From positions 3,685,579-3,749,578 of the forward strand of contig NZ_CP051168.1 in the NCBI RefSeq assembly GCF_016446395.1: a stretch of DNA of 64,000 nucleotides. Direction: 5' to 3'. The notes under the pieces are model-generated. The model had not been told where the DNA came from. It did not search any database and was given only the letters and a program-made list of their open reading frames with translations. The translations under genes and the position numbers were made by a program. The first letter of the stretch is position 1; every line of letters begins with the position of its first letter. The DNA comes from [Phormidium] sp. ETS-05. Lineage in GTDB: Bacteria > Cyanobacteriota > Cyanobacteriia > Cyanobacteriales > Laspinemataceae. Positions 4,470-21,936 of the stretch are shown piece after piece.

Positions 4470-6806
4470 TTAGTTGTTGCCACCCATGATGTTTTGCACG
4501 ATCGCCTTGCGGGCTTCTTCCGTCTTTTGCCGATCGAGCTTAAACACAATCACCCCCAGAGGCGGTAAACACAAATCCATAGAATAGCGATGATTGTGCA
4601 TCCACCACTCATCAGCCCATTTACCACCAAGGTTGCCCATCCCGCTACCGCCAAACTCTTTAGCATCACTATTAAACAGTTCCGTGTAGAAACCATGCTC
4701 CGGAACACCGACGCGGTAGTGGCTGTGAGGTTGGGGAGTGAAATTGCACACCGTCACGATAAATTCGTCAGAGCCTTTCGCCCGTCGAATGAATGACACC
4801 ACACTATGGCGGTTGTCACTGCAATCAATCCACTCAAACCCTGCCTGGTCAAAATCCTGGGTATAGAGAGCCGCTTCACTCTTATACAAATTATTCAACT
4901 GACTAAAAAAGTATTTAAGCTGCTGGTGAGGTTCATACTGCAAAAGCTGCCACTCCAAGTCTCCCCAGACGTTCCACTCACTCCATTGGGCAAATTCCAT
5001 GCTCATAAACATGGTTTTCTTACCAGGGTGACAGAACATATAAGTGAACAAAGCCCGGACGTTGGCGAACTTCTGCCAGCGGTCTCCCGGCATTTTGCCA
5101 ATCATATTGCTCTTACCATGAACTACCTCATCGTGAGACAAGGCGAGCATAAAGTTTTCGCTGTGGTTGTACCACATGCTGAAAGTGACATTATTTTGGT
5201 GGAACTGGCGGAACCAAGGGTCCATGCTGAAATAATCCAGCATATCGTGCATCCAGCCCATATTCCACTTCAGGTTAAAGCCCAAACCCCCCACATAGGT
5301 AGGCCAAGAGACCATTGGCCAGGAGGTGGATTCTTCCGCAATGGATAACACCCCAGGGAAATAAGAAAACAGGAGATGATTCACTTGACGCAAGAAGTCG
5401 GCGGCGTCGATATTTTCCCGACCGCCATACTGGTTAGGAACCCATTCTCCCGGTTTCCGGGCATAGTCCAGATACAGCATAGAAGCCACTGCATCCACCC
5501 GAATCCCATCAATATGGTATTTGTCAAACCAGAATAAAGCATTAGCCACTAGGAAGTTGCGCACTTCGTTGCGGCTGTAGTTGAATATCTTAGTGCCCCA
5601 TTCCGTATGTTCGCCTTTGCGGGGGTCGGCGTGTTCATAGAGGTGGGTGCCATCAAAGAAAGACAGACCGTGACCATCTTTGGGGAAGTGACCGGGAACC
5701 CAATCAACAATGACGCCGATACCGTGTTGATGGCACTGGTCCACAAAGTACATAAAGTCTTCAGGACTGCCATAGCGGGAGGTGGGAGCAAAATAGCCGG
5801 TGACTTGATAACCCCAGGAGCCATCAAACGGGTGTTCGGCGATCGGCAGCAACTCAATGTGAGTGTAGCCCAAGTCTTTCACATAGGGAATCAGACGAGC
5901 TGCCAGCTCCCGGTAGGTGAGGAAACGGGCTCCCGGCTTCAGTTCCGAGACCACCACTACCGGTTCCGGTGTGCCATCGGGAGCCAATGCTGGTTCCGCA
6001 GAGGAGGCATGGAGCCAGGAACCGAGGTGACATTCATATACCGATACCGGCTGAGTAAGAGGGTCCGTGTGGCGGCGTTTGTCGAGCCAGTCGCCATCGT
6101 TCCAACTATACCGGCTCAGGTCAGCGACGATCGAGGCAGTTTTCGGTCTTGGTTCTTGCTGGAAGCCATAGGGGTCGGATTTTTCATAGATATGGCCTTC
6201 ACTATTTTTGATTTCATACTTGTAGGCAGCACCCACAGTCAAATCAGGGATGAACAGTTCCCAAACCCCGTTCCCACCCTTGCGCATTTGGTGTTTGCGC
6301 CCATCCCACGAGTTAAAGTCACCTAGTAGAGACACATTGCGGGCATTAGGAGCCCAGACGGCGAAGTAAACCCCTTTCACCCCCTCCACTTCCATCAAGT
6401 GGGCGCCCAACTTCTCATAAATCCGGTGGTGGTTGCCTTCAGCAAATAAGTGAACGTCAAAATCCGTCAACTTCGGGTCACGGAAGGCGTAGGGGTCGTA
6501 TGTCACCCGCTCGTGTTCCCCTTCTTTGATCCGCAGTTGGTAGTTGATCAACTCCGACATTTCCGTGGTGCATTCAAAACTGCATTCAAAAAAGTGGGGG
6601 TTGTGGCTGGGTTCCATTGGGTATTCCTTCCGCTCTTCGGGAAGGATGACCGAAACAGCATTCGCATTGGGCAAGTATGCTCGGACCACCCAGGTGCTGG
6701 TTTTGCCGTTTTGGCTAATCAGGTGGGGACCGAGAACCGCAAACGGGTCTTGATGCTGGTTCCAAACGATCCGATCGATTTGCTCAGGGGAAATAGTAAT
6801 GGCCAT
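4470..6806 (-). CDS. glgB: 1,4-alpha-glucan branching enzyme
   Basis: 778 aa. The N-terminal [28 protein letters not shown] and GH13 catalytic-region motifs are characteristic of GlgB. Confidence 0.95.
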
Positions 6807-8369: not shown

Positions 8370-9005
8370 ATGACTGCTGCGCTAAAAAACCCCGGTATGA
8401 GTAGAACCAGGAGCCTTGTACCTTTGCCGGGAGGCAGGGCGGGATTAGCCAAAAATCTCCCCAATGGGGTGCGAAAGAAGATTGTGCCCCTGCGGCCCAT
8501 TGCCCCGTCCCCCCGTCCAGAAGTCCCCCGGTCGGTGAGCGAACCGATAGGTCGGCGAAGCCCAGCCGAACCGCCGTCCCCCCGTCTTCCCCGCTCAGGG
8601 GTAGCAGCCAGAGTGGCTCGGATTGACAAAAAAGCCCCTGTGTGGTCTCAGCCCTGGTGGCTGCGAACGATCGCCAGCATCTACTCCATCAGTTCCATCA
8701 CCACAATTCTGTTAGGAGGAGCAGCCTTGACCATGTATGCCAGCACGGTTTACCACCAACAGCAGTGGAGCCAAGAATATGGTAAGCTAGAAAACCTGCG
8801 TCGGGAAGAGCGGCAGCTAAGCGCCACAAACGAAGTATTGAAAAACAGCATCGCCGAAAGCGCCGAACAACCGGGCACTGGCCTAGTCCCCCCAGAAGCA
8901 GCGCCCACCATTGTTCTGGAACCAGCACCGCCGTCTCCTGCCGCCGCCCCCAAACCAACCCCCACCAGAATGGCGCCCCTGGTTGAAGAACCACTGGGAT
9001 ATTAA
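8370..9005 (+). CDS. FtsL/DivIC-like cell-division protein (single transmembrane helix plus coiled coil) upstream of ftsI
   Basis: TM helix TIASIYSISSITTILLGGAALTMYA is followed by the coiled coil LENLRREERQLSATNEVLKN. It sits directly 5' of ftsI, as ftsL does in other bacteria. The Pro-rich N-terminus overlaps a G-rich repeat, so the start is uncertain. Confidence 0.4.
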   Translation: MTAALKNPGMSRTRSLVPLPGGRAGLAKNLPNGVRKKIVPLRPIAPSPRPEVPRSVSEPIGRRSPAEPPSPRLPRSGVAARVARIDKKAPVWSQPWWLRTIASIYSISSITTILLGGAALTMYASTVYHQQQWSQEYGKLENLRREERQLSATNEVLKNSIAESAEQPGTGLVPPEAAPTIVLEPAPPSPAAAPKPTPTRMAPLVEEPLGY

Positions 9006-9018
9006 TAGGAGGTGGCTC

Positions 9019-10977
9019 ATGGCTCTGAGGATGCCCCCATCCGGCAGGGGTGGCGATCGTAGTCGCCAACCGCCCAGAAAGAAACGCCCTCATCTAGCCC
9101 CTCTCGTGGGCAAAACTCAGCGCGACCAAACCATCCGAGGTCAGTCTCGCCGCCACAAACCCACAATCGATCCCCTGTTACACCGCCGCCAAATCGCCCA
9201 GAAGTGGAACCCACCAAAGCGCAAACAGGCAGCATTGCCCACAAGGGAGCGATCGCGTTTGGTGGCGGTGTGGGGCATCTTGTGCTTAGCCATACTGGGT
9301 TTAAGTGCCAACCTATACCGGTTGCAAGTGATACAAGCAGCCTCCCTCAAAGAAATCGCCCGATCGCAACAAGTAGTAACGGTCAAACCATTTGTCCCCC
9401 GCCGCCAAATTAAAGACGCCCAAGGCAACATCTTAGCCTTGGATATGCCCGTGTGGACTTTGTATGCCCACCCCCGTCTATTTGTCAAGCCCAAAGAAGA
9501 AATCGCCAAGCAACTAGCTCCCGTGCTGAATCTTCCACCTTGGCAAATTCTCGTCAAGCTCAGCCAAGGAGAAAGCGGAATTACTGTGGCCTACGATTTG
9601 CCCGAAGAGGTGGGTCAGCAAGTAGGTAATTTGGGTATAGACGGGCTAGAACTGAACCGCACGGCAAAGCGATTTTATCCCCAAAAAGGACTAGCCTCAG
9701 AAGTAGTGGGATATGTGGATGTGGATCGTCTTGGGCAAGCCGGATTAGAACGTAGTCAAGAAGAATTGCTCGAAAGAGGACTCCGCCGAGCTGACGGCTC
9801 CGCCAAAACCATCCAGCTCAAGATGGGAGCCCTAACCCCCGATCCCGTAGATGGGGAGTTTCTAGAACTAGACGAATTGAGCCTGCGCCTGACGATCGAC
9901 AGTCGCCTGCAAAGAGCAGCTCGATCGGCTTTAGACGCACAGCTCAAAGAAGCCAAAGCAAAACGCGGGGCAGTCATAGTGATGGACGCCAAAGACGGTG
10001 CCTTGCTCGCTTTAGTTTGCTCCCCTTCCTACGACTCCAACCGCTACTACGACTACAATGTAGAGCTATTTAAAAACTGGGTGTTAACCGACCTGTACGA
10101 GCCCGGATCCACCTTCAAACCCATTGTCGTGGCGATCGGCTTAGAATCCGGTGCCATCAAACCCGATAGCACCTTTTACGACGAAGGTCAAATCACGATC
10201 GACCAGTGGTCAATAGAAAACCACGACTACAAATCCGTCGGCGGTAGAGGCACCCTCAACGTCCGCCAAATCCTAGAACATTCCAGCAACGTGGGCATGG
10301 TTCACATCGCCGCTCGAATGCGTCCGTCCCTCTTTTATAGCTGGCTAGTGCGCCTCGGTTTAGGCAACACTGTGGGCATTGACCTCCCCTTTGAAGTAGA
10401 AAGCCAACTCCGCCCCAGATGGGAATTTACCGCCTCCCCCGTTCACCCCGCCACCACCTCCTTTGGTCAAGGATTCGCCATCACCCCCATCCAGCTACTA
10501 CAGCTCCACGGTACACTTGCCAATGGCGGCTACCTCGTCACTCCCCACGTAGTCAAAGGGCTATTTGACAGTCAGGGCCAACCCGTCTCCACTCCCAAAC
10601 ACCCCCAACCCCAACAGGTTTTCTCCCCTGAAACCACTAAAGCCGTCGTGGCAATGATGGAAAACGTGATTGAAGAAGGAACCGGTAAAAACGCCCAAAT
10701 TCCCGGCTATCGCATAGCAGGCAAAACCGGCACCTCTCAAAAAGTCACCACCAATGGCACCGGCTACTCGGAATATGCCAGAATTGCCAGTTTTGTGAGC
10801 ATTCTTCCCGCCGATAACCCCCGCTACGTCGTCCTTACCGTCATCGACGAACCCAAAGACGGCTACGGCGGCACCGTTGCGGCCCCAGTATCTCGCGCCG
10901 TTATGGAAGCCCTCATCTCCATCCAGGGGATTCCTCCCTCCACCGAGCCACCCCCGTCATCCAGCGGCGAGGAATAA
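9019..10977 (+). CDS. ftsI: peptidoglycan D,D-transpeptidase FtsI (class B PBP)
   Basis: STFKP (SxxK), SSN and KTGT motifs. N-terminal transmembrane helix and dimerisation domain. ATG at 9019 sits 8 nt after AGGAGG; the track start at 8911 would overlap the upstream gene. Confidence 0.85.
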   Translation: MALRMPPSGRGGDRSRQPPRKKRPHLAPLVGKTQRDQTIRGQSRRHKPTIDPLLHRRQIAQKWNPPKRKQAALPTRERSRLVAVWGILCLAILGLSANLYRLQVIQAASLKEIARSQQVVTVKPFVPRRQIKDAQGNILALDMPVWTLYAHPRLFVKPKEEIAKQLAPVLNLPPWQILVKLSQGESGITVAYDLPEEVGQQVGNLGIDGLELNRTAKRFYPQKGLASEVVGYVDVDRLGQAGLERSQEELLERGLRRADGSAKTIQLKMGALTPDPVDGEFLELDELSLRLTIDSRLQRAARSALDAQLKEAKAKRGAVIVMDAKDGALLALVCSPSYDSNRYYDYNVELFKNWVLTDLYEPGSTFKPIVVAIGLESGAIKPDSTFYDEGQITIDQWSIENHDYKSVGGRGTLNVRQILEHSSNVGMVHIAARMRPSLFYSWLVRLGLGNTVGIDLPFEVESQLRPRWEFTASPVHPATTSFGQGFAITPIQLLQLHGTLANGGYLVTPHVVKGLFDSQGQPVSTPKHPQPQQVFSPETTKAVVAMMENVIEEGTGKNAQIPGYRIAGKTGTSQKVTTNGTGYSEYARIASFVSILPADNPRYVVLTVIDEPKDGYGGTVAAPVSRAVMEALISIQGIPPSTEPPPSSSGEE

Positions 10978-18336: not shown

Positions 18337-18510
18337 ATGACTATGACTACTGTCACCCAGATGAAATGCGCTTGTGAGTCTTGCCTCTGCATCGTTTCTC
18401 TGAGCGAAGCGGTGGCAAAAGAAGGTAAATATTACTGCTCGGAAGCCTGCGCCAGCGGTCATACCAACGGTTCTGGCTGTGGACATACTGGCTGCACTTG
18501 CCACGCCTAG
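18337..18510 (+). CDS. smtA: metallothionein (SmtA/BmtA family), 57 aa, absent from the ORF track because it is shorter than 60 aa
   Basis: MTMTTVTQMKCACESCLCIVSLSEAVAKEGKYYCSEACASGHTNGSGCGHTGCTCHA. The Cys/His pattern KCACE.CLC...YYCSEAC..GH..GS.GCGHTGC.CH is shared with Synechococcus SmtA. Confidence 0.9.
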   Translation: MTMTTVTQMKCACESCLCIVSLSEAVAKEGKYYCSEACASGHTNGSGCGHTGCTCHA

Positions 18511-18683: not shown

Positions 18684-19172
18684 TTGAGTAAATATGAGAT
18701 AATTTTTTTTCAGTTCCCGCGACCTACCGATACCCTATCCTATCAAGTGCCAGTGGAAATCCCAGATAACCATGATTTTGACGCGGTAGTTAACCCTGGT
18801 GTGGAGGCTGCAGATGAAGAAGAGTGCGAGCGAGACCACACCATAGATTTTGACGACATCAGCACCCTGCGAAATCAGCTCCTCAACTCAGAAAAAGCCC
18901 AAATGATGGCGGAGTTTTTCAGCTTTTTGGGGGATGCCAATCGCTTGCGAATCATCTCAGCGTTAGCCCTCAAAGAGCAATGTGTCCACGAACTAGCTGC
19001 CACTGTCACCATGAGTGAATCCGCTGTTTCTCATCAGTTGCGGAATTTACGCGCTCACCGACTCGTAAGCTATCGCAAGCAGGGACGCCAAGTTTTTTAT
19101 CGCCTCAAAGACCGACATATATTCAGTCTCTATGAAGCGGTAGCGGAACATATTGATGAAAAAGATAGCTAA
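18684..19172 (+). CDS. smtB: ArsR/SmtB-family metal-responsive transcriptional repressor
   Basis: LGDANRLRIISALA...ELAATVTMSESAVSHQLRNLRAHRLVSYRKQGRQVFYRL is a winged-HTH region. The alpha5 metal site DRH-x10-H-x2-E (DRHIFSLYEAVAEHIDE) is present. The true start may be internal, since the N-terminal extension is long. Confidence 0.8.
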   Translation: MSKYEIIFFQFPRPTDTLSYQVPVEIPDNHDFDAVVNPGVEAADEEECERDHTIDFDDISTLRNQLLNSEKAQMMAEFFSFLGDANRLRIISALALKEQCVHELAATVTMSESAVSHQLRNLRAHRLVSYRKQGRQVFYRLKDRHIFSLYEAVAEHIDEKDS

Positions 19173-19266: not shown

Positions 19267-19548
19267 TTAAACCTGCTTGTAGAATCTCTCTTTAGGAATC
19301 AGCTTCCCATGATCCAACTCGAGGCAAACTTCCTGGACTATTTCGGCGTGCTTATTAAACAAATTGATACTAATAGAATCACCCCCAGTATATGCTACTA
19401 AAGAAGCAGTAAAAGGTTGCTTAATCGTTATATCAAAAAGCCTGACATTGTGGGGAGAAGCAGTAATTAATTCAAAATCGCTATCGTTGAGCTTGCTCAT
19501 CTTAAAAATTTCCCAATTAAACTGTAATTTATCCAACCCAAAGGCCAA
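19267..19548 (-). CDS. hypothetical protein in a low-GC patch
   Basis: Only the 93-aa ORF itself supports this; I recognise no motif. The local GC is lower than in the surrounding sequence. Confidence 0.25.
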   Translation of the reverse strand: MAFGLDKLQFNWEIFKMSKLNDSDFELITASPHNVRLFDITIKQPFTASLVAYTGGDSISINLFNKHAEIVQEVCLELDHGKLIPKERFYKQV

Positions 19549-19691
19549 ACCGGATTCAGCTATTCCCTTGATGCCATAATCTTAACAGCCTGTATCCCCC
19601 GATCGCTGAAGATGGTGTGGCAGTTTCGCTAATTACCCTCCGGGCTGAGTCGGATCAGGATTCAGGGTGGAAGGCTGACCCCGCCAGGGTG

Positions 19692-19820
19692 AAAAAAAAC
19701 GACCAGCCCGTGTAGGCTGGTCCCCAAAAAAAACCAAATACGTTGTCGTTTCAAGACGAGGAAACCCATTCCTGCGCGTTCCCAAGCTGGCAGCGGGTAT
19801 GTTAGGATCAAACTCGTCCC
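19692..19820 (-). ncRNA. candidate small RNA (~130 nt) ending in an intrinsic terminator
   Basis: Reading the minus strand: a TACAAT -10 box (plus-strand attgta at 19828-19833), then GGACGAG...CCUCGUC long-range pairing. The terminator hairpin GACCAGCC-uacac-GGCUGGUC (19701-19723) is followed by U8. Confidence 0.4.
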
Positions 19821-19917
19821 AAAAAAGATTGTAGCAGCAGACACGAATTTTTAGTTACAAAACTTTATCAGGACGTTAAAAAACATTGACTTAACCTCCC
19901 CGTCCCCCTGGTCCCCC

Positions 19918-20140
19918 CATCCTTACAAGTGCAGGTTTTTTATCAAAGCAGAAAATTTCTGACAAACACTCCAAATTGCCCTCACCCCCAACCCCTCTCC
20001 CAGGTAGGGAGAGGGGAGAAGAGCGGGAGAGAGGTTGGGGGTGAGGGCTTTAGCCCCTTTCTCCCTACCTGGGAGCCCAACGACTGCGCCAGGAGGGTTG
20101 GGGGATAGAGGGCAATATAAAAAACCTACACTTGTAAGGT
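19918..20140. mobile_element. MITE-like element, family C, with 23-bp terminal inverted repeats (CCTTACAAGTGCAGGTTTTTTAT ... ATAAAAAACCTACACTTGTAAGG)
   Basis: The terminal inverted repeats are readable directly. The internal sequence is shared with 12846-13065. Confidence 0.55.
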
Positions 20141-20175: not shown

Positions 20176-21936
20176 CTAACTTTGGCTCAAATAGACACTG
20201 GCGACTTGGGGACGTCCCCAAATCACCCGCTCGTGTTTGTACACCACCATCCCCGGTTTTGCACCCTTGGGCTTATACACATGCTTGGGTTTGGTGTAAA
20301 CTACTGGCACCTGCTCGCTTTGCCTTGCCCGACTGTAGTAAGCAGTTAAGTCAGCGGCTAATTGCAAATCCCGATCGTCCGCCACCGCCCCAGGGTTAAG
20401 CCGCAACAAGACATGACTACCAGCAATCTCCTGGGTGTGAAACCACAAGTCATAATCACCGGCGATGCGAAAACTCAATAAATCATTTTGCCGGTTGTTT
20501 CGCCCCACCAATAATTCAAACCCACTAGGAGACTGATAGCGGTGAAAATCCGCCGCGTCGCTGGGCTTGATCCCCCCCGGTTTACCCCCAGCCGCATCAA
20601 CTTGCCCATCTGGCATCAGCTCCTGACGAATCTCCTGCAGGGCTCGCAGGTCCGCTTCTTCCCCATAAGTATCGATTTGGGTAACGGCTACTTCCACTTG
20701 TTCCAAATATTCGATTTCCGAGATCACCTCCGCCAGCAAAGGCTCGATCGCTGTGCGGGCCCGTTTCAGCTTTTGGTGCAGCTTATACAGACTTTGGGCA
20801 TTTTGCACCGCGTTTTTCTCTGGGTTAAGAGGAACCAGCACCATTTCCCCAGTTTCAAAGTCCGGGAGTTGAATCGACTTCATCCCCGGTTCCCACATAT
20901 GGAGGTGCGCCATGAGCAAATCAGCCAGTTGGCGGTGCCGATCGGCCCCCTCCGACTCCTGTAACCGCTCTGTCCACCCCGCCGCCTTCTGGCGCAACTT
21001 CCCCAACAGCCGCGATAGCTTTTGCATCAGAGCTTGGCGCAATTGCTGGAATTCCTCTTGATTCAATTTGGCACTATAGTACCGATCGAGCAATTCCTGT
21101 AATGAGATAGCCTTCTTCCCACCATCCCCACCATAAAGTACCGTATAACCCCCATCTGTCCAACCCGGTTTCAGATGAGATAAATCCCCTTGCCCCAAAG
21201 CCGCCAAGGCTTGCAGCCACCCCAGCCACTCCTGAAATAACCCCTGCCATTGCCCCTCTGTCAGCTCCAAAGTAGAGGTTTCCGGGTCGATACCCGCCGC
21301 CACCACCATCGAACTCACCAAAGAAGAACTCAAACCCCGATAACTGGAGAGCAACCGTTTGCCCACCTTACCAGGAATCAAGCTTACCCGCTCTTGCCAC
21401 CGCTGGTAAGGTTCCGCCACAGTAGGCGCCGGGTCCGTCAACGCCGGAGGCAGTTCATAGGGTTGGCCCGTTTGCACCGGACGGACGCTAGATTGCTTTT
21501 CGCTGACTTGGTGAGCGCAAGTAATGATGGTGTTGTCCTGGTTAGCCAGGATGACATTACTGCGTTTTCCCATAATTTCTGCATACAGATGCCACAAAAT
21601 CGGTTCCCCCGGACGGCGGGCAAACTGTAAATCAAAAGCCCGCTCCCAAGATTGCACCGGCTCTATGGCAACCAAAGCTAAACCCCCCAATTGGTGCCGC
21701 AGTTGGTCGCTGAAGGTGAAAGTATCTGGGGTGCGGGGTGGGGGGGCGCACAAACACAAACGCGCTCCTTGGGGGTGCCAAGAAACAGCCAGCCAACAGC
21801 GTCCCGTGAGGGTGCGCAGAGCGAGATTCACGGTGTGGCGATCGCGCTGATAAACCTGTTCTAGGCGAGCTGGCAGGACCTGAGCGCGCAGCTCACTACA
21901 GGCAGCAGTTAGAGTAGTGAAATCAACTTGTTGCAT
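20176..21936 (-). CDS. NFACT-domain RNA-binding protein (FbpA / RqcH-Rqc2 family, DUF814)
   Basis: 586 aa. N-terminal NFACT-N-like region, a central coiled coil, and a C-terminal NFACT-R/DUF814 block FELLVGRNNRQNDLLSFRIAGDYDLWFHTQEIAGSHVLLR. Confidence 0.75.
   Translation of the reverse strand: MQQVDFTTLTAACSELRAQVLPARLEQVYQRDRHTVNLALRTLTGRCWLAVSWHPQGARLCLCAPPPRTPDTFTFSDQLRHQLGGLALVAIEPVQSWERAFDLQFARRPGEPILWHLYAEIMGKRSNVILANQDNTIITCAHQVSEKQSSVRPVQTGQPYELPPALTDPAPTVAEPYQRWQERVSLIPGKVGKRLLSSYRGLSSSLVSSMVVAAGIDPETSTLELTEGQWQGLFQEWLGWLQALAALGQGDLSHLKPGWTDGGYTVLYGGDGGKKAISLQELLDRYYSAKLNQEEFQQLRQALMQKLSRLLGKLRQKAAGWTERLQESEGADRHRQLADLLMAHLHMWEPGMKSIQLPDFETGEMVLVPLNPEKNAVQNAQSLYKLHQKLKRARTAIEPLLAEVISEIEYLEQVEVAVTQIDTYGEEADLRALQEIRQELMPDGQVDAAGGKPGGIKPSDAADFHRYQSPSGFELLVGRNNRQNDLLSFRIAGDYDLWFHTQEIAGSHVLLRLNPGAVADDRDLQLAADLTAYYSRARQSEQVPVVYTKPKHVYKPKGAKPGMVVYKHERVIWGRPQVASVYLSQS

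Follow-up and report, generated by a model that had tools for sequence, protein, structure and literature searches.

The intergenic gap behind the gene for NFACT/RqcH (rqcH) in the filamentous cyanobacterium [Phormidium] sp. ETS-05 raised the question of whether it contains a small RNA (sRNA) gene of its own or only the end of the NFACT messenger RNA (mRNA). An earlier note on this DNA had described a candidate sRNA of about 130 nt in a gap of ~600 bp, and had offered the terminator of the NFACT 3' untranslated region (UTR) as the alternative. The gap was borne out at 627 nt, from the NFACT stop at 20176 to the start of the next open reading frame (ORF) at 19548 (19500 from its ATG). All coordinates refer to the window, which is the whole 64-kb stretch of DNA that was analyzed, and the sRNA, its promoter, its terminator and the NFACT gene were all located on the minus strand. 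Comparison with other cyanobacteria indicated with high confidence that the element is a genuine conserved RNA gene, and on sequence grounds the sRNA interpretation was supported over that of a bare 3'-UTR terminator. The two features on which the analysis was centered are as follows.

20176-21936, minus strand: NFACT/RqcH (Rqc2-family) gene, 586 amino acids, from the ORF list; host of the sRNA in its 3' region
19692-19821, minus strand: predicted sRNA, ~130 nt, spanning the inferred start site through the last U of the U-run; full-length match of covariance model R1

Conservation of the predicted sRNA downstream of NFACT

The candidate together with its promoter was used for nhmmer and blastn searches of 80 NFACT loci, and a collinear element was detected in 69 of them, with all matches on the NFACT strand and shortly downstream of NFACT. 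The covariance model R1 was built from a 42-sequence alignment (A2) and gave a single match on the window (19692-19821, minus strand, 101.3 bits, E = 1.1e-23). The covariance search for homologues that the earlier note had suggested was run with R1 on 81 NFACT/rqcH loci of other cyanobacteria (designated below by L numbers), and 73 of the 81 gave a match of 62-114 bits, in every case on the strand of NFACT and a short way downstream of the gene. No match was obtained in eight loci, two of which had downstream flanks too short to judge, while L001, L023, L033 and L067 had full flanks and no R1 copy. The promoter, the RNA body and the terminator were kept as a unit in Oscillatoriales, Nostocales, Leptolyngbya-like and Pleurocapsales-like genomes.

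Metagenomes were scanned by the RNA motifs alone with a loose pattern, and 10 of the 80 loci returned were true instances by R1. NFACT was directly upstream in seven of these 10, and in one the upstream flank was too short. A copy of Nostocales type in L127 (4743-4869, minus strand) was found downstream of a murA-like gene (5049-6356, minus strand) and not of NFACT, and the copy in L107 followed the terminator of another gene, away from NFACT; both retained a complete promoter and all motifs. The discrete sRNA gene of ~130 nt proposed earlier was thus supported by comparison, as the predicted unit was conserved across orders and intact away from NFACT in L127 and L107.

Predicted promoter of the sRNA

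The TACAAT -10 box that the earlier note had recognized on the minus strand was confirmed at 19833-19828, where it is extended by a TG at 19836-19835 and conserved across homologues.

19828-19836, minus strand: extended -10 element TGCTACAAT (TGn + TACAAT), from the sequence and its alignment column in homologues
19852-19857, minus strand: -35-like element, TAACTA in the window and TTACAA in the family consensus, from an upstream alignment of 56 loci

TACAAT, TATAAT or TAAAAT occurred at one alignment column in nearly all homologues, mostly preceded by TGT, and the order of the family promoter (-35-like TTACAA, spacer, TGT-TACAAT) was conserved. The putative start of the sRNA was placed by its spacing from the -10 box, 7-8 nt downstream, and the boundaries 19692-19820 of the earlier note agreed both with this start and with the R1 match.

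Many lineages contained a further ATGTAAA element ~50 nt upstream of the inferred start. In its extended form, ATGTAAA(N4-5)TTACAAAAAA, the conserved element overlapped the -35 region from about -50 to -35 (e.g. L054, L079, L064 and L025), with the half-sites TGTAA-N7-TTACA in most lineages and GTAAA-N2-TTTAC in Nostocales; the window carries a degenerate copy of ATGTAAA...TTACAA at 19866-19850. This ATGTAAA-type element is probably the binding site of a regulator. Three known sites were considered in the promoter and rejected: NtcA (GTA-N8-TAC) for its spacing, which was N9 or N6 and not N8; HLR1/RpaB because the repeat was inverted whereas HLR1 is a direct repeat; and CGRE1/PlmA for the lack of a 21-22-nt palindrome flanked by GTTG/GTTA.

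Terminator of the sRNA and its probable sharing with NFACT

The GC-rich hairpin followed by eight U, as read in the earlier note, was recovered by the terminator scan, and its stem proved to be conserved family-wide.

19701-19722, minus strand: terminator hairpin GACCAGCCU-ACAC-GGGCUGGUC, 9 pairs of which 6 are G-C, from the terminator scan
19692-19699, minus strand: U8 tail of the intrinsic terminator, from the sequence and the terminator scan

The 5' arm GACCAGCCU occupies 19722-19714 and the 3' arm GGGCUGGUC 19709-19701, with the ACAC loop between them and G19700 before the U-run. Across the family the stem GACCAGCY...RGCUGGUC was kept in sequence, with double changes at 7 of its 9 pairs, and the C-G pair at columns 139/159 was invariant in 42 of 42 sequences. 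The motif ACCAGC...GCTGGT plus T-run was essentially limited to the sRNA family within 774 kb of loci.

The gap between NFACT and the promoter was searched for other terminators, taken as any hairpin with an energy no weaker than -8 kcal/mol and 6 or more T among 8 following bases. This detector recovered 68 of 73 of the sRNA's own terminators as a positive control, and a terminator-like site within the gap was flagged in only one of the 73 loci. In the window, no minus-strand call of the terminator scan from the NFACT stop to 19722 had a convincing T-run. The RNA start followed the NFACT stop codon at a median distance of 126 nt and a minimum of 19 nt, and the promoter was placed 19-350 nt past the stop across loci; with gaps down to 19 nt, it abuts or overlaps the end of the NFACT coding sequence (CDS) in several genomes. 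Since no terminator intervened in 72 of 73 loci, the sRNA terminator would also end the NFACT mRNA. A terminator common to the sRNA and NFACT explains the synteny and reconciles the two readings of the earlier note, in that the NFACT 3'-UTR terminator, being the first terminator after NFACT in these 72 loci, is compatible with an sRNA.

Structure and conserved motifs of the RNA

The order along the RNA was 5' segment, core hairpin, CU-rich UUUCCUC, single-stranded ACAAC(G) tract and terminator, and the 5' segment was variable across the family. The structural features of the window copy are listed below.

19813-19820, minus strand: 5' arm of the long-range helix P1, GGGACGAG, pairing with 19760-19753 in the minimum free energy (MFE) and centroid folds
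19753-19760, minus strand: 3' arm of P1, CUCGUCUU, overlapping the conserved CU-rich UUUCCUC tract (19764-19758)
19764-19798, minus strand: core hairpin P2-P3-P3b, from pair counts on alignments A2 and A3
19798-19795 with 19767-19764, minus strand: P2 of the core hairpin, ACCC with GGGU
19793-19790 with 19775-19772, minus strand: P3 of the core hairpin, CUGC with GCAG
19787-19786 with 19777-19776, minus strand: P3b of the core hairpin, GC with GC
19778-19785, minus strand: apical loop UUGGGAAC, from alignments A2 and A3
19741-19752, minus strand: single-stranded A/C-rich tract GAAACGACAACG with the conserved ACAAC(G) at 19746-19741, from A2; unpaired in homologue folds

The core hairpin had the consensus CCC-G-CUGC...GCAG-N-GGG, and its loop held the near-invariant UUGGGAACG. 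The apical loop GGGAACG was near-invariant, being AGAAACG in the Microcoleus group, and in A2 (first-sequence numbering) G41, A43, A44 and G46 were invariant and C45 nearly so. In the A/C tract, A77 and A80 were invariant and C78, A79 and C81 nearly so in the same alignment, and (AAC)n-like tracts were seen in several lineages. The P3 stem covaried as CUGC/GCAG, UUGC/GCAA, AGGU/ACCU and CUGU/ACAG. The paired cells amounted to 77-86% per core helix and 94-96% in the terminator, compared with 24-42% for the whole structure with slid partners; 12-15 pairs were changed on both sides, and none of 500 shuffles reached the observed pairing values. These core helices were specified by hand, and RNAalifold on the MAFFT alignment recovered the terminator only. 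When L082, L030, L052, L049 and L127 were folded separately, the P1/P2/P3 architecture was obtained each time. In this architecture the core hairpin is enclosed by P1.

The long-range helix P1 predicted earlier was real in the window, where it appeared in the MFE and centroid folds with a duplex energy of -12.3 kcal/mol (RNAduplex; z = -3.1 vs shuffles of the 5' arm), and in several lineages, but it was not universal. Equivalent pairings of different sequence were found in L030/L003, L049, the Lyngbya group, L020 and the Nostocales-type L127, and the arm pairs across lineages were GGGACGAG/CUCGUCUU, CGCGGAGA/UCCUCGUG, GAUUUGAGA/UCUCAAAUC, UGGGGGA/UUCCUCCA and GUUAAGA/UUUUAAC. The Microcoleus group had a local hairpin in the 5' segment instead of P1. 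A column-wise test on the MAFFT alignment gave 53% of cells paired vs 42-58% when slid and was uninformative because the 5' region could not be aligned, and P1 was assessed by alignment-free duplex and fold tests instead of columns. One of these alignment-free tests was noisy, as shuffling a purine-rich 5' end does not abolish its pairing with the CU tract.

Coding potential of the element

Two ORFs of 50 and 60 amino acids overlap the region in the window, both with TTG/GTG starts and crossing the promoter or the terminator; these were implausible, and no frame was kept across 74 homologues, in agreement with the view of the earlier note that the region has no credible ORF. Among the 74 homologues the spacing between two conserved motifs was 25/25/24 modulo 3, the median longest ATG ORF inside the RNA was 4 codons, and an in-frame ATG upstream of the core was present in 4-20% of sequences, depending on the frame. 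The downstream ORF was mostly convergent and varied between loci, which argues that the element is not a riboswitch or 5' leader.

Comparison with catalogued and named RNAs

Rfam 15 was searched at several levels. Only a tRNA-Pro reached the gathering score in the window, with none at the element; at E <= 10, scans of 1.1 kb and 146 nt returned weak, terminator-driven matches only (11-16 bits); and no match was obtained at the element in 15 diverse homologous loci. The database includes Yfr1, Cyano-1/Yfr2, NsiR1 and NsiR9 (PMC12873609), and the families without a match at the element also comprised Cyano-2, 6S, SRP and tmRNA. A full-text literature search was carried out with conserved strings (TTGGGAACGC, GGGAACGCGCAG and others), and three specific strings occurred in no paper.

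Yfr2 (Rfam Cyano-1) resembled the rqcH-linked sRNA in being widely conserved and apparently also in having a long bulged stem with a purine-rich apical loop and then a terminator (PMC2662882). It differed in its hallmark, a conserved unpaired 5' motif like GGUGUGUGAGGA that is complementary to the motif of Yfr1 and was absent from the rqcH-linked sRNA: among 74 family members, the RNA began with UUAAGAAA, UUAGGGAGA, UGGGACGAG or similar, and none had the Yfr2a-c primer motif. The conserved apical loop of Yfr2 is ~12 nt, and the rqcH-linked sRNA has an 8-14-nt loop on the P1-P2-P3 stem with a bulge near it, a resemblance judged by architecture. Yfr2 genes are without conserved synteny (PMC2662882), in contrast to the tie with NFACT, and the Cyano-1 model gave no match to the rqcH-linked sRNA at E <= 10, nor in the 15 homologous loci. 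The antisense probe primer for Synechocystis Yfr2b (PMC2662882) implies an RNA string, CAAGCUGGUC, identical to the terminator 3' arm in L030/L003, and this identity may reflect chance or a distant relationship to Yfr2.

Other named sRNAs were compared as well. The Yfr1 motif CACUCCUCACACC was absent from the rqcH-linked sRNA, and the probe primers for SyR1/PsrR1 did not match it, the SyR1 gene being located after fabF (PMC2662882). PmgR1, PsrR1, IsaR1, NsiR4 and Yfr1 have in common with it a promoter, conserved single-stranded motifs, an intrinsic terminator and conservation beyond one genus. IsaR1 (~68 nt) and NsiR4 (~70 nt) are much shorter than the rqcH-linked sRNA. PmgR1 (Ncr0700) is reported to be conserved over 195 nt between two Synechocystis strains (PMC5386190), and on length identity of our sRNA with PmgR1 is unlikely.

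The closest parallels in layout were DapZ (after dapB) and MicL (within and after cutC), which are 'type I' 3'-UTR-embedded sRNAs with a promoter of their own. As in the rqcH-linked sRNA, their promoter is at or near the 3' end of a coding gene, the Rho-independent terminator is common with the host mRNA, the host synteny is kept, and a conserved seed, putative in our RNA, precedes the terminator. With its predicted own promoter and a terminator that appears to be common with NFACT, the predicted layout is that of a type I 3'-UTR sRNA. DapZ and MicL are enterobacterial and have no sequence relationship to the cyanobacterial RNA, and the rqcH-linked promoter is usually just past the stop codon, not deep inside the CDS.

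The NFACT locus of Nostoc sp. PCC 7120

The NFACT gene of Nostoc sp. PCC 7120 is BAB76073 (BA000019.2 5238616-5240355, reverse strand), and a family member was absent next to it. The spacer downstream (L092 4241-4461) consisted of a long palindrome of heptamer repeats (GGGAGCA.../CCCCAGT...) resembling short tandemly repeated repetitive (STRR) sequences, and Table S3 of Brenes-Alvarez et al., which gives coordinates only, had no entry near 5238xxx. The position of the L127 copy after murA suggests where the missing copy may sit in genomes such as PCC 7120.

A look-alike sRNA was detected at L215 4843-4973 (BA000019.2 ~5245514-5245394, reverse), ~5 kb upstream of NFACT on the same strand, while the rqcH-linked sRNA lies downstream of NFACT. 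Its start coincided with the experimentally mapped start site 5245514r, for which Table 1 of Brenes-Alvarez et al. 2016 (PMC4734099) lists a predicted sRNA length of 120 nt, 174/135/94/79 reads and 22 heterocystous genomes with homologues. As in the rqcH-linked family, the look-alike had ATGTAAA at about -48, a TGTTACAtT -10, the 5' end UUAAGAAAA, the terminator stem GACCAGCC...GGCUGGUU and the similar short blocks GCUUGG, GCGC, UCCUC and ACAxCAxC. Its core differed, without the GGGAACG loop, and scored only 12.6 bits with R1 (E = 0.29); the two did not align over their full length but just at the promoter, 5' end and terminator. The look-alike represents a second sRNA family in Nostocales. 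An orthologue of the look-alike (L074, ~1-130) coexisted with a true family member in L074, so the look-alike is at most a paralogue and not an orthologue. By analogy only, it suggests that this promoter-terminator design can yield a primary transcript in vivo.

Surroundings of the sRNA gene

The NFACT homologues bear PF05833, PF05670 and PF18297, and are labelled Rqc2, RqcH or NFACT depending on the source. The window protein was 93% identical in amino acids to that of Oscillatoriaceae cyanobacterium M33_DOE_052, and within the one-genome-per-species collection its best relative reached 71% identity only. Between the NFACT stop and the sRNA promoter lies a miniature inverted-repeat transposable element (MITE).

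19923-20137, strand not assigned: MITE, ~215 nt, from the sequence and the alignment with the closest relative

It has the terminal inverted repeats TTACAAGTGTAGGTTTTTTAT...ATAAAAAACCTGCACTTGTAA (also given as TTACAAGTGTAGG.../...CCTGCACTTGTAA) around an inner G/C-rich palindrome, and a 13-nt direct duplication, GGATGGGGGGACC, borders it at 20150-20138 and 19922-19910. The MITE with its flanking duplication makes up ~228 nt of the gap between NFACT and the next ORF. It was missing in L082, the closest relative (alignment A1, window vs L082), which points to a recent insertion between NFACT and the sRNA promoter. In the same comparison the sRNA and its promoter were near-identical (few substitutions over ~200 nt), and the flanks were far less so. 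The miRNA-like Rfam matches at 19970-20055 were rejected as spurious, being caused by the inner palindrome of the MITE.

On the other side, ~190 nt past the sRNA terminator and on the same strand, is a small hypothetical ORF of 77 amino acids (from ATG 19500; 19267-19500, minus strand) that had no Pfam match. A block upstream of it (~19560-19640) was kept in L082, so that a separate promoter for the ORF is probable; transcription of the sRNA may also extend into it. Further on, an ORF for a Cys-rich, SmtA-like metallothionein (18337-18510, plus strand, 57 amino acids) adjoins one for an ArsR/SmtB-type regulator (18684-19172, plus strand, 162 amino acids), and this pair (PF02069 + PF01022) is present in the closest relative too. 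Among the other loci, L052 (Limnoraphis robusta) had three tandem Rfam matches to NsiR1 at 8978-9576, which exceeded the gathering score (47-51 bits) and are downstream of the NFACT locus by ~3 kb. NsiR1 is described as a heterocyst-differentiation marker RNA. In L016 (Oscillatoria sp. PCC 10802), CRISPR-DR28 repeats at 6281-6468 start ~300 nt past the sRNA terminator.

Discussion

Our favored explanation is that the element specifies a discrete sRNA of ~130 nt acting in trans by base pairing, and this combined reading is considered probable; taken by itself, the role of a base-pairing regulator is reasonably likely. The RNA would be made mainly as a discrete transcript from its own sigma-70-type promoter, and rqcH transcripts would end at the sRNA terminator, giving the sRNA and the mRNA a common 3' end. 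As seeds, the RNA would use the exposed apical loop UUGGGAACG, the ACAACG linker or both; each of the two was conserved and predicted to be unpaired. The anti-Shine-Dalgarno-like UUUCCUC would be masked in P1 and, once P1 opens, could bind the translation-initiation regions of mRNAs. PsrR1, IsaR1, NsiR4 and Yfr1 are known base-pairing sRNAs of cyanobacteria.

Several points weighed against this explanation. The fold energy was weak, with z vs shuffles of -1.1 and -0.9 for the window copy and from -1.3 to -3.3 for homologues; because the fold energy of the window sequence alone was like that of shuffles, the case for an RNA rests on conservation, as does the designation as an sRNA in every organism. 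The -35 and upstream elements of the window were degenerate, and a generic sigma-70 promoter scan made no call at the site. No sign of pairing was obtained for the NFACT translation-initiation region (mean z = -0.36), in a noisy test in which duplexfold over-predicts on long segments. With the family member absent next to NFACT in PCC 7120, the published differential RNA sequencing was not directly usable. DapZ and MicL depend on Hfq, and the Hfq of cyanobacteria is not known to act as a classical chaperone of sRNAs. Finally, the conserved sequences of the terminator stem and the loop could equally mean recognition by a protein.

This last point leads to an RNA that binds or sequesters a protein, in which a protein or another sRNA would recognize the loop, the A/C tract and the terminator stem, and the RNA would act by titration. 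Precedents are 6S, CsrB/RsmZ and CrcZ, and titration was also proposed for Yfr2 as a sponge for Yfr1. The conservation of the terminator stem in its sequence and not in pairing alone, including the invariant 139/159 pair and the restriction of the motif to the sRNA, is consistent with such a role, as are the (AAC)n-like tracts. The architecture of Yfr2, a GGGA loop on a long bulged stem, was likened by Voss et al. to RsmA-binding motifs (PMC2662882), and the apical loop of our sRNA likewise carries GGGA on a long bulged stem. However, Voss et al. reported that RsmA/RsmE homologues were not identifiable in cyanobacteria (PMC2662882), and no candidate protein partner was identified here. In addition, each RNA has one loop motif whereas titrating RNAs usually have repeated sites, and the conservation of a loop and a linker would be just as usual for seeds that base-pair. 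Protein titration was regarded as unlikely.

A quite unlikely alternative is that the element acts in cis in the rqcH 3' UTR, on termination, stability or translation (e.g. as an autoregulatory site for RqcH), with any short transcript as a by-product. It would account for the element being the same-strand neighbor of NFACT in 73 of 81 loci, and also in 7 of the 9 metagenomic instances that were informative, for the lack of another terminator between the two, and for promoters that abut or overlap the CDS end at gaps of 19-40 nt. A pure 3'-UTR element needs no promoter, however, and a complete one was conserved immediately upstream. Every motif is retained in two copies without NFACT, the one behind murA in L127 and the free-standing one in L107, while Nostoc PCC 7120 and four other genomes have NFACT without the element nearby. 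In the window, moreover, the MITE separates gene and element by 228 nt and the element is still near-identical to that of L082.

The sRNA could also be a functional partner of RqcH, as decoy, cofactor or feedback regulator of ribosome-associated quality control, an idea we hold to be very doubtful. The linkage to rqcH across cyanobacterial orders was unusually tight for an sRNA, and RqcH has RNA-binding NFACT-R domains and selects tRNA-Ala. The CUGC/GCAG of P3 presumably has the same 4 bp as the anticodon stem of E. coli tRNA-Ala(UGC), which we take as a lead only. This idea was weakened by the common-terminator layout, which already explains the synteny, and by the copies away from rqcH.

A bare rqcH terminator, with the upstream conservation and the TACAAT incidental, was judged highly improbable. 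The window fold energy, not different from shuffles (z ~ -1), and the silent promoter scan would fit it, but ~90 nt upstream of the hairpin were conserved across orders with invariant blocks of 5-7 nt and compensatory changes, R1 matched over its full length at 62-114 bits, and the -10 hexamer was at a fixed position. The presence of a single copy per genome region and the fixed synteny speak against an artefact of mobile repeats. An mRNA for a micropeptide is scarcely credible despite the purine-rich 5' ends (AAGAGAGA, AGGGAGA) that resemble Shine-Dalgarno sequences in some lineages and the cyanobacterial 'sRNAs' that proved to encode peptides (PMC6596454), given the rare in-frame ATG, the short ATG ORFs, the uniform spacing modulo 3 and the blocks of 5-7 consecutive invariant bases without third-position wobble.

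To our knowledge, few sRNAs are conserved across cyanobacterial orders, namely Yfr1, Yfr2, PsrR1, NsiR4, IsaR1 and PmgR1, and those among them whose function has been worked out control central processes. The element appears to be a new sRNA family of a familiar kind, spread over several cyanobacterial orders and tied to rqcH. If the sRNA should already have a name (e.g. PmgR1), the remaining value would be the wider phylogenetic map and the linkage to rqcH. R1 provides a ready-made covariance model for annotation, and outside enterobacteria the predicted layout would be a clear example of an sRNA embedded in a 3' UTR and served by a promoter of its own. The near-invariant motifs from Nostocales to Oscillatoriales make the RNA a good candidate for another core regulator, and its fixed place behind rqcH raises the question of whether ribosome quality control is tied to an RNA regulator in cyanobacteria.

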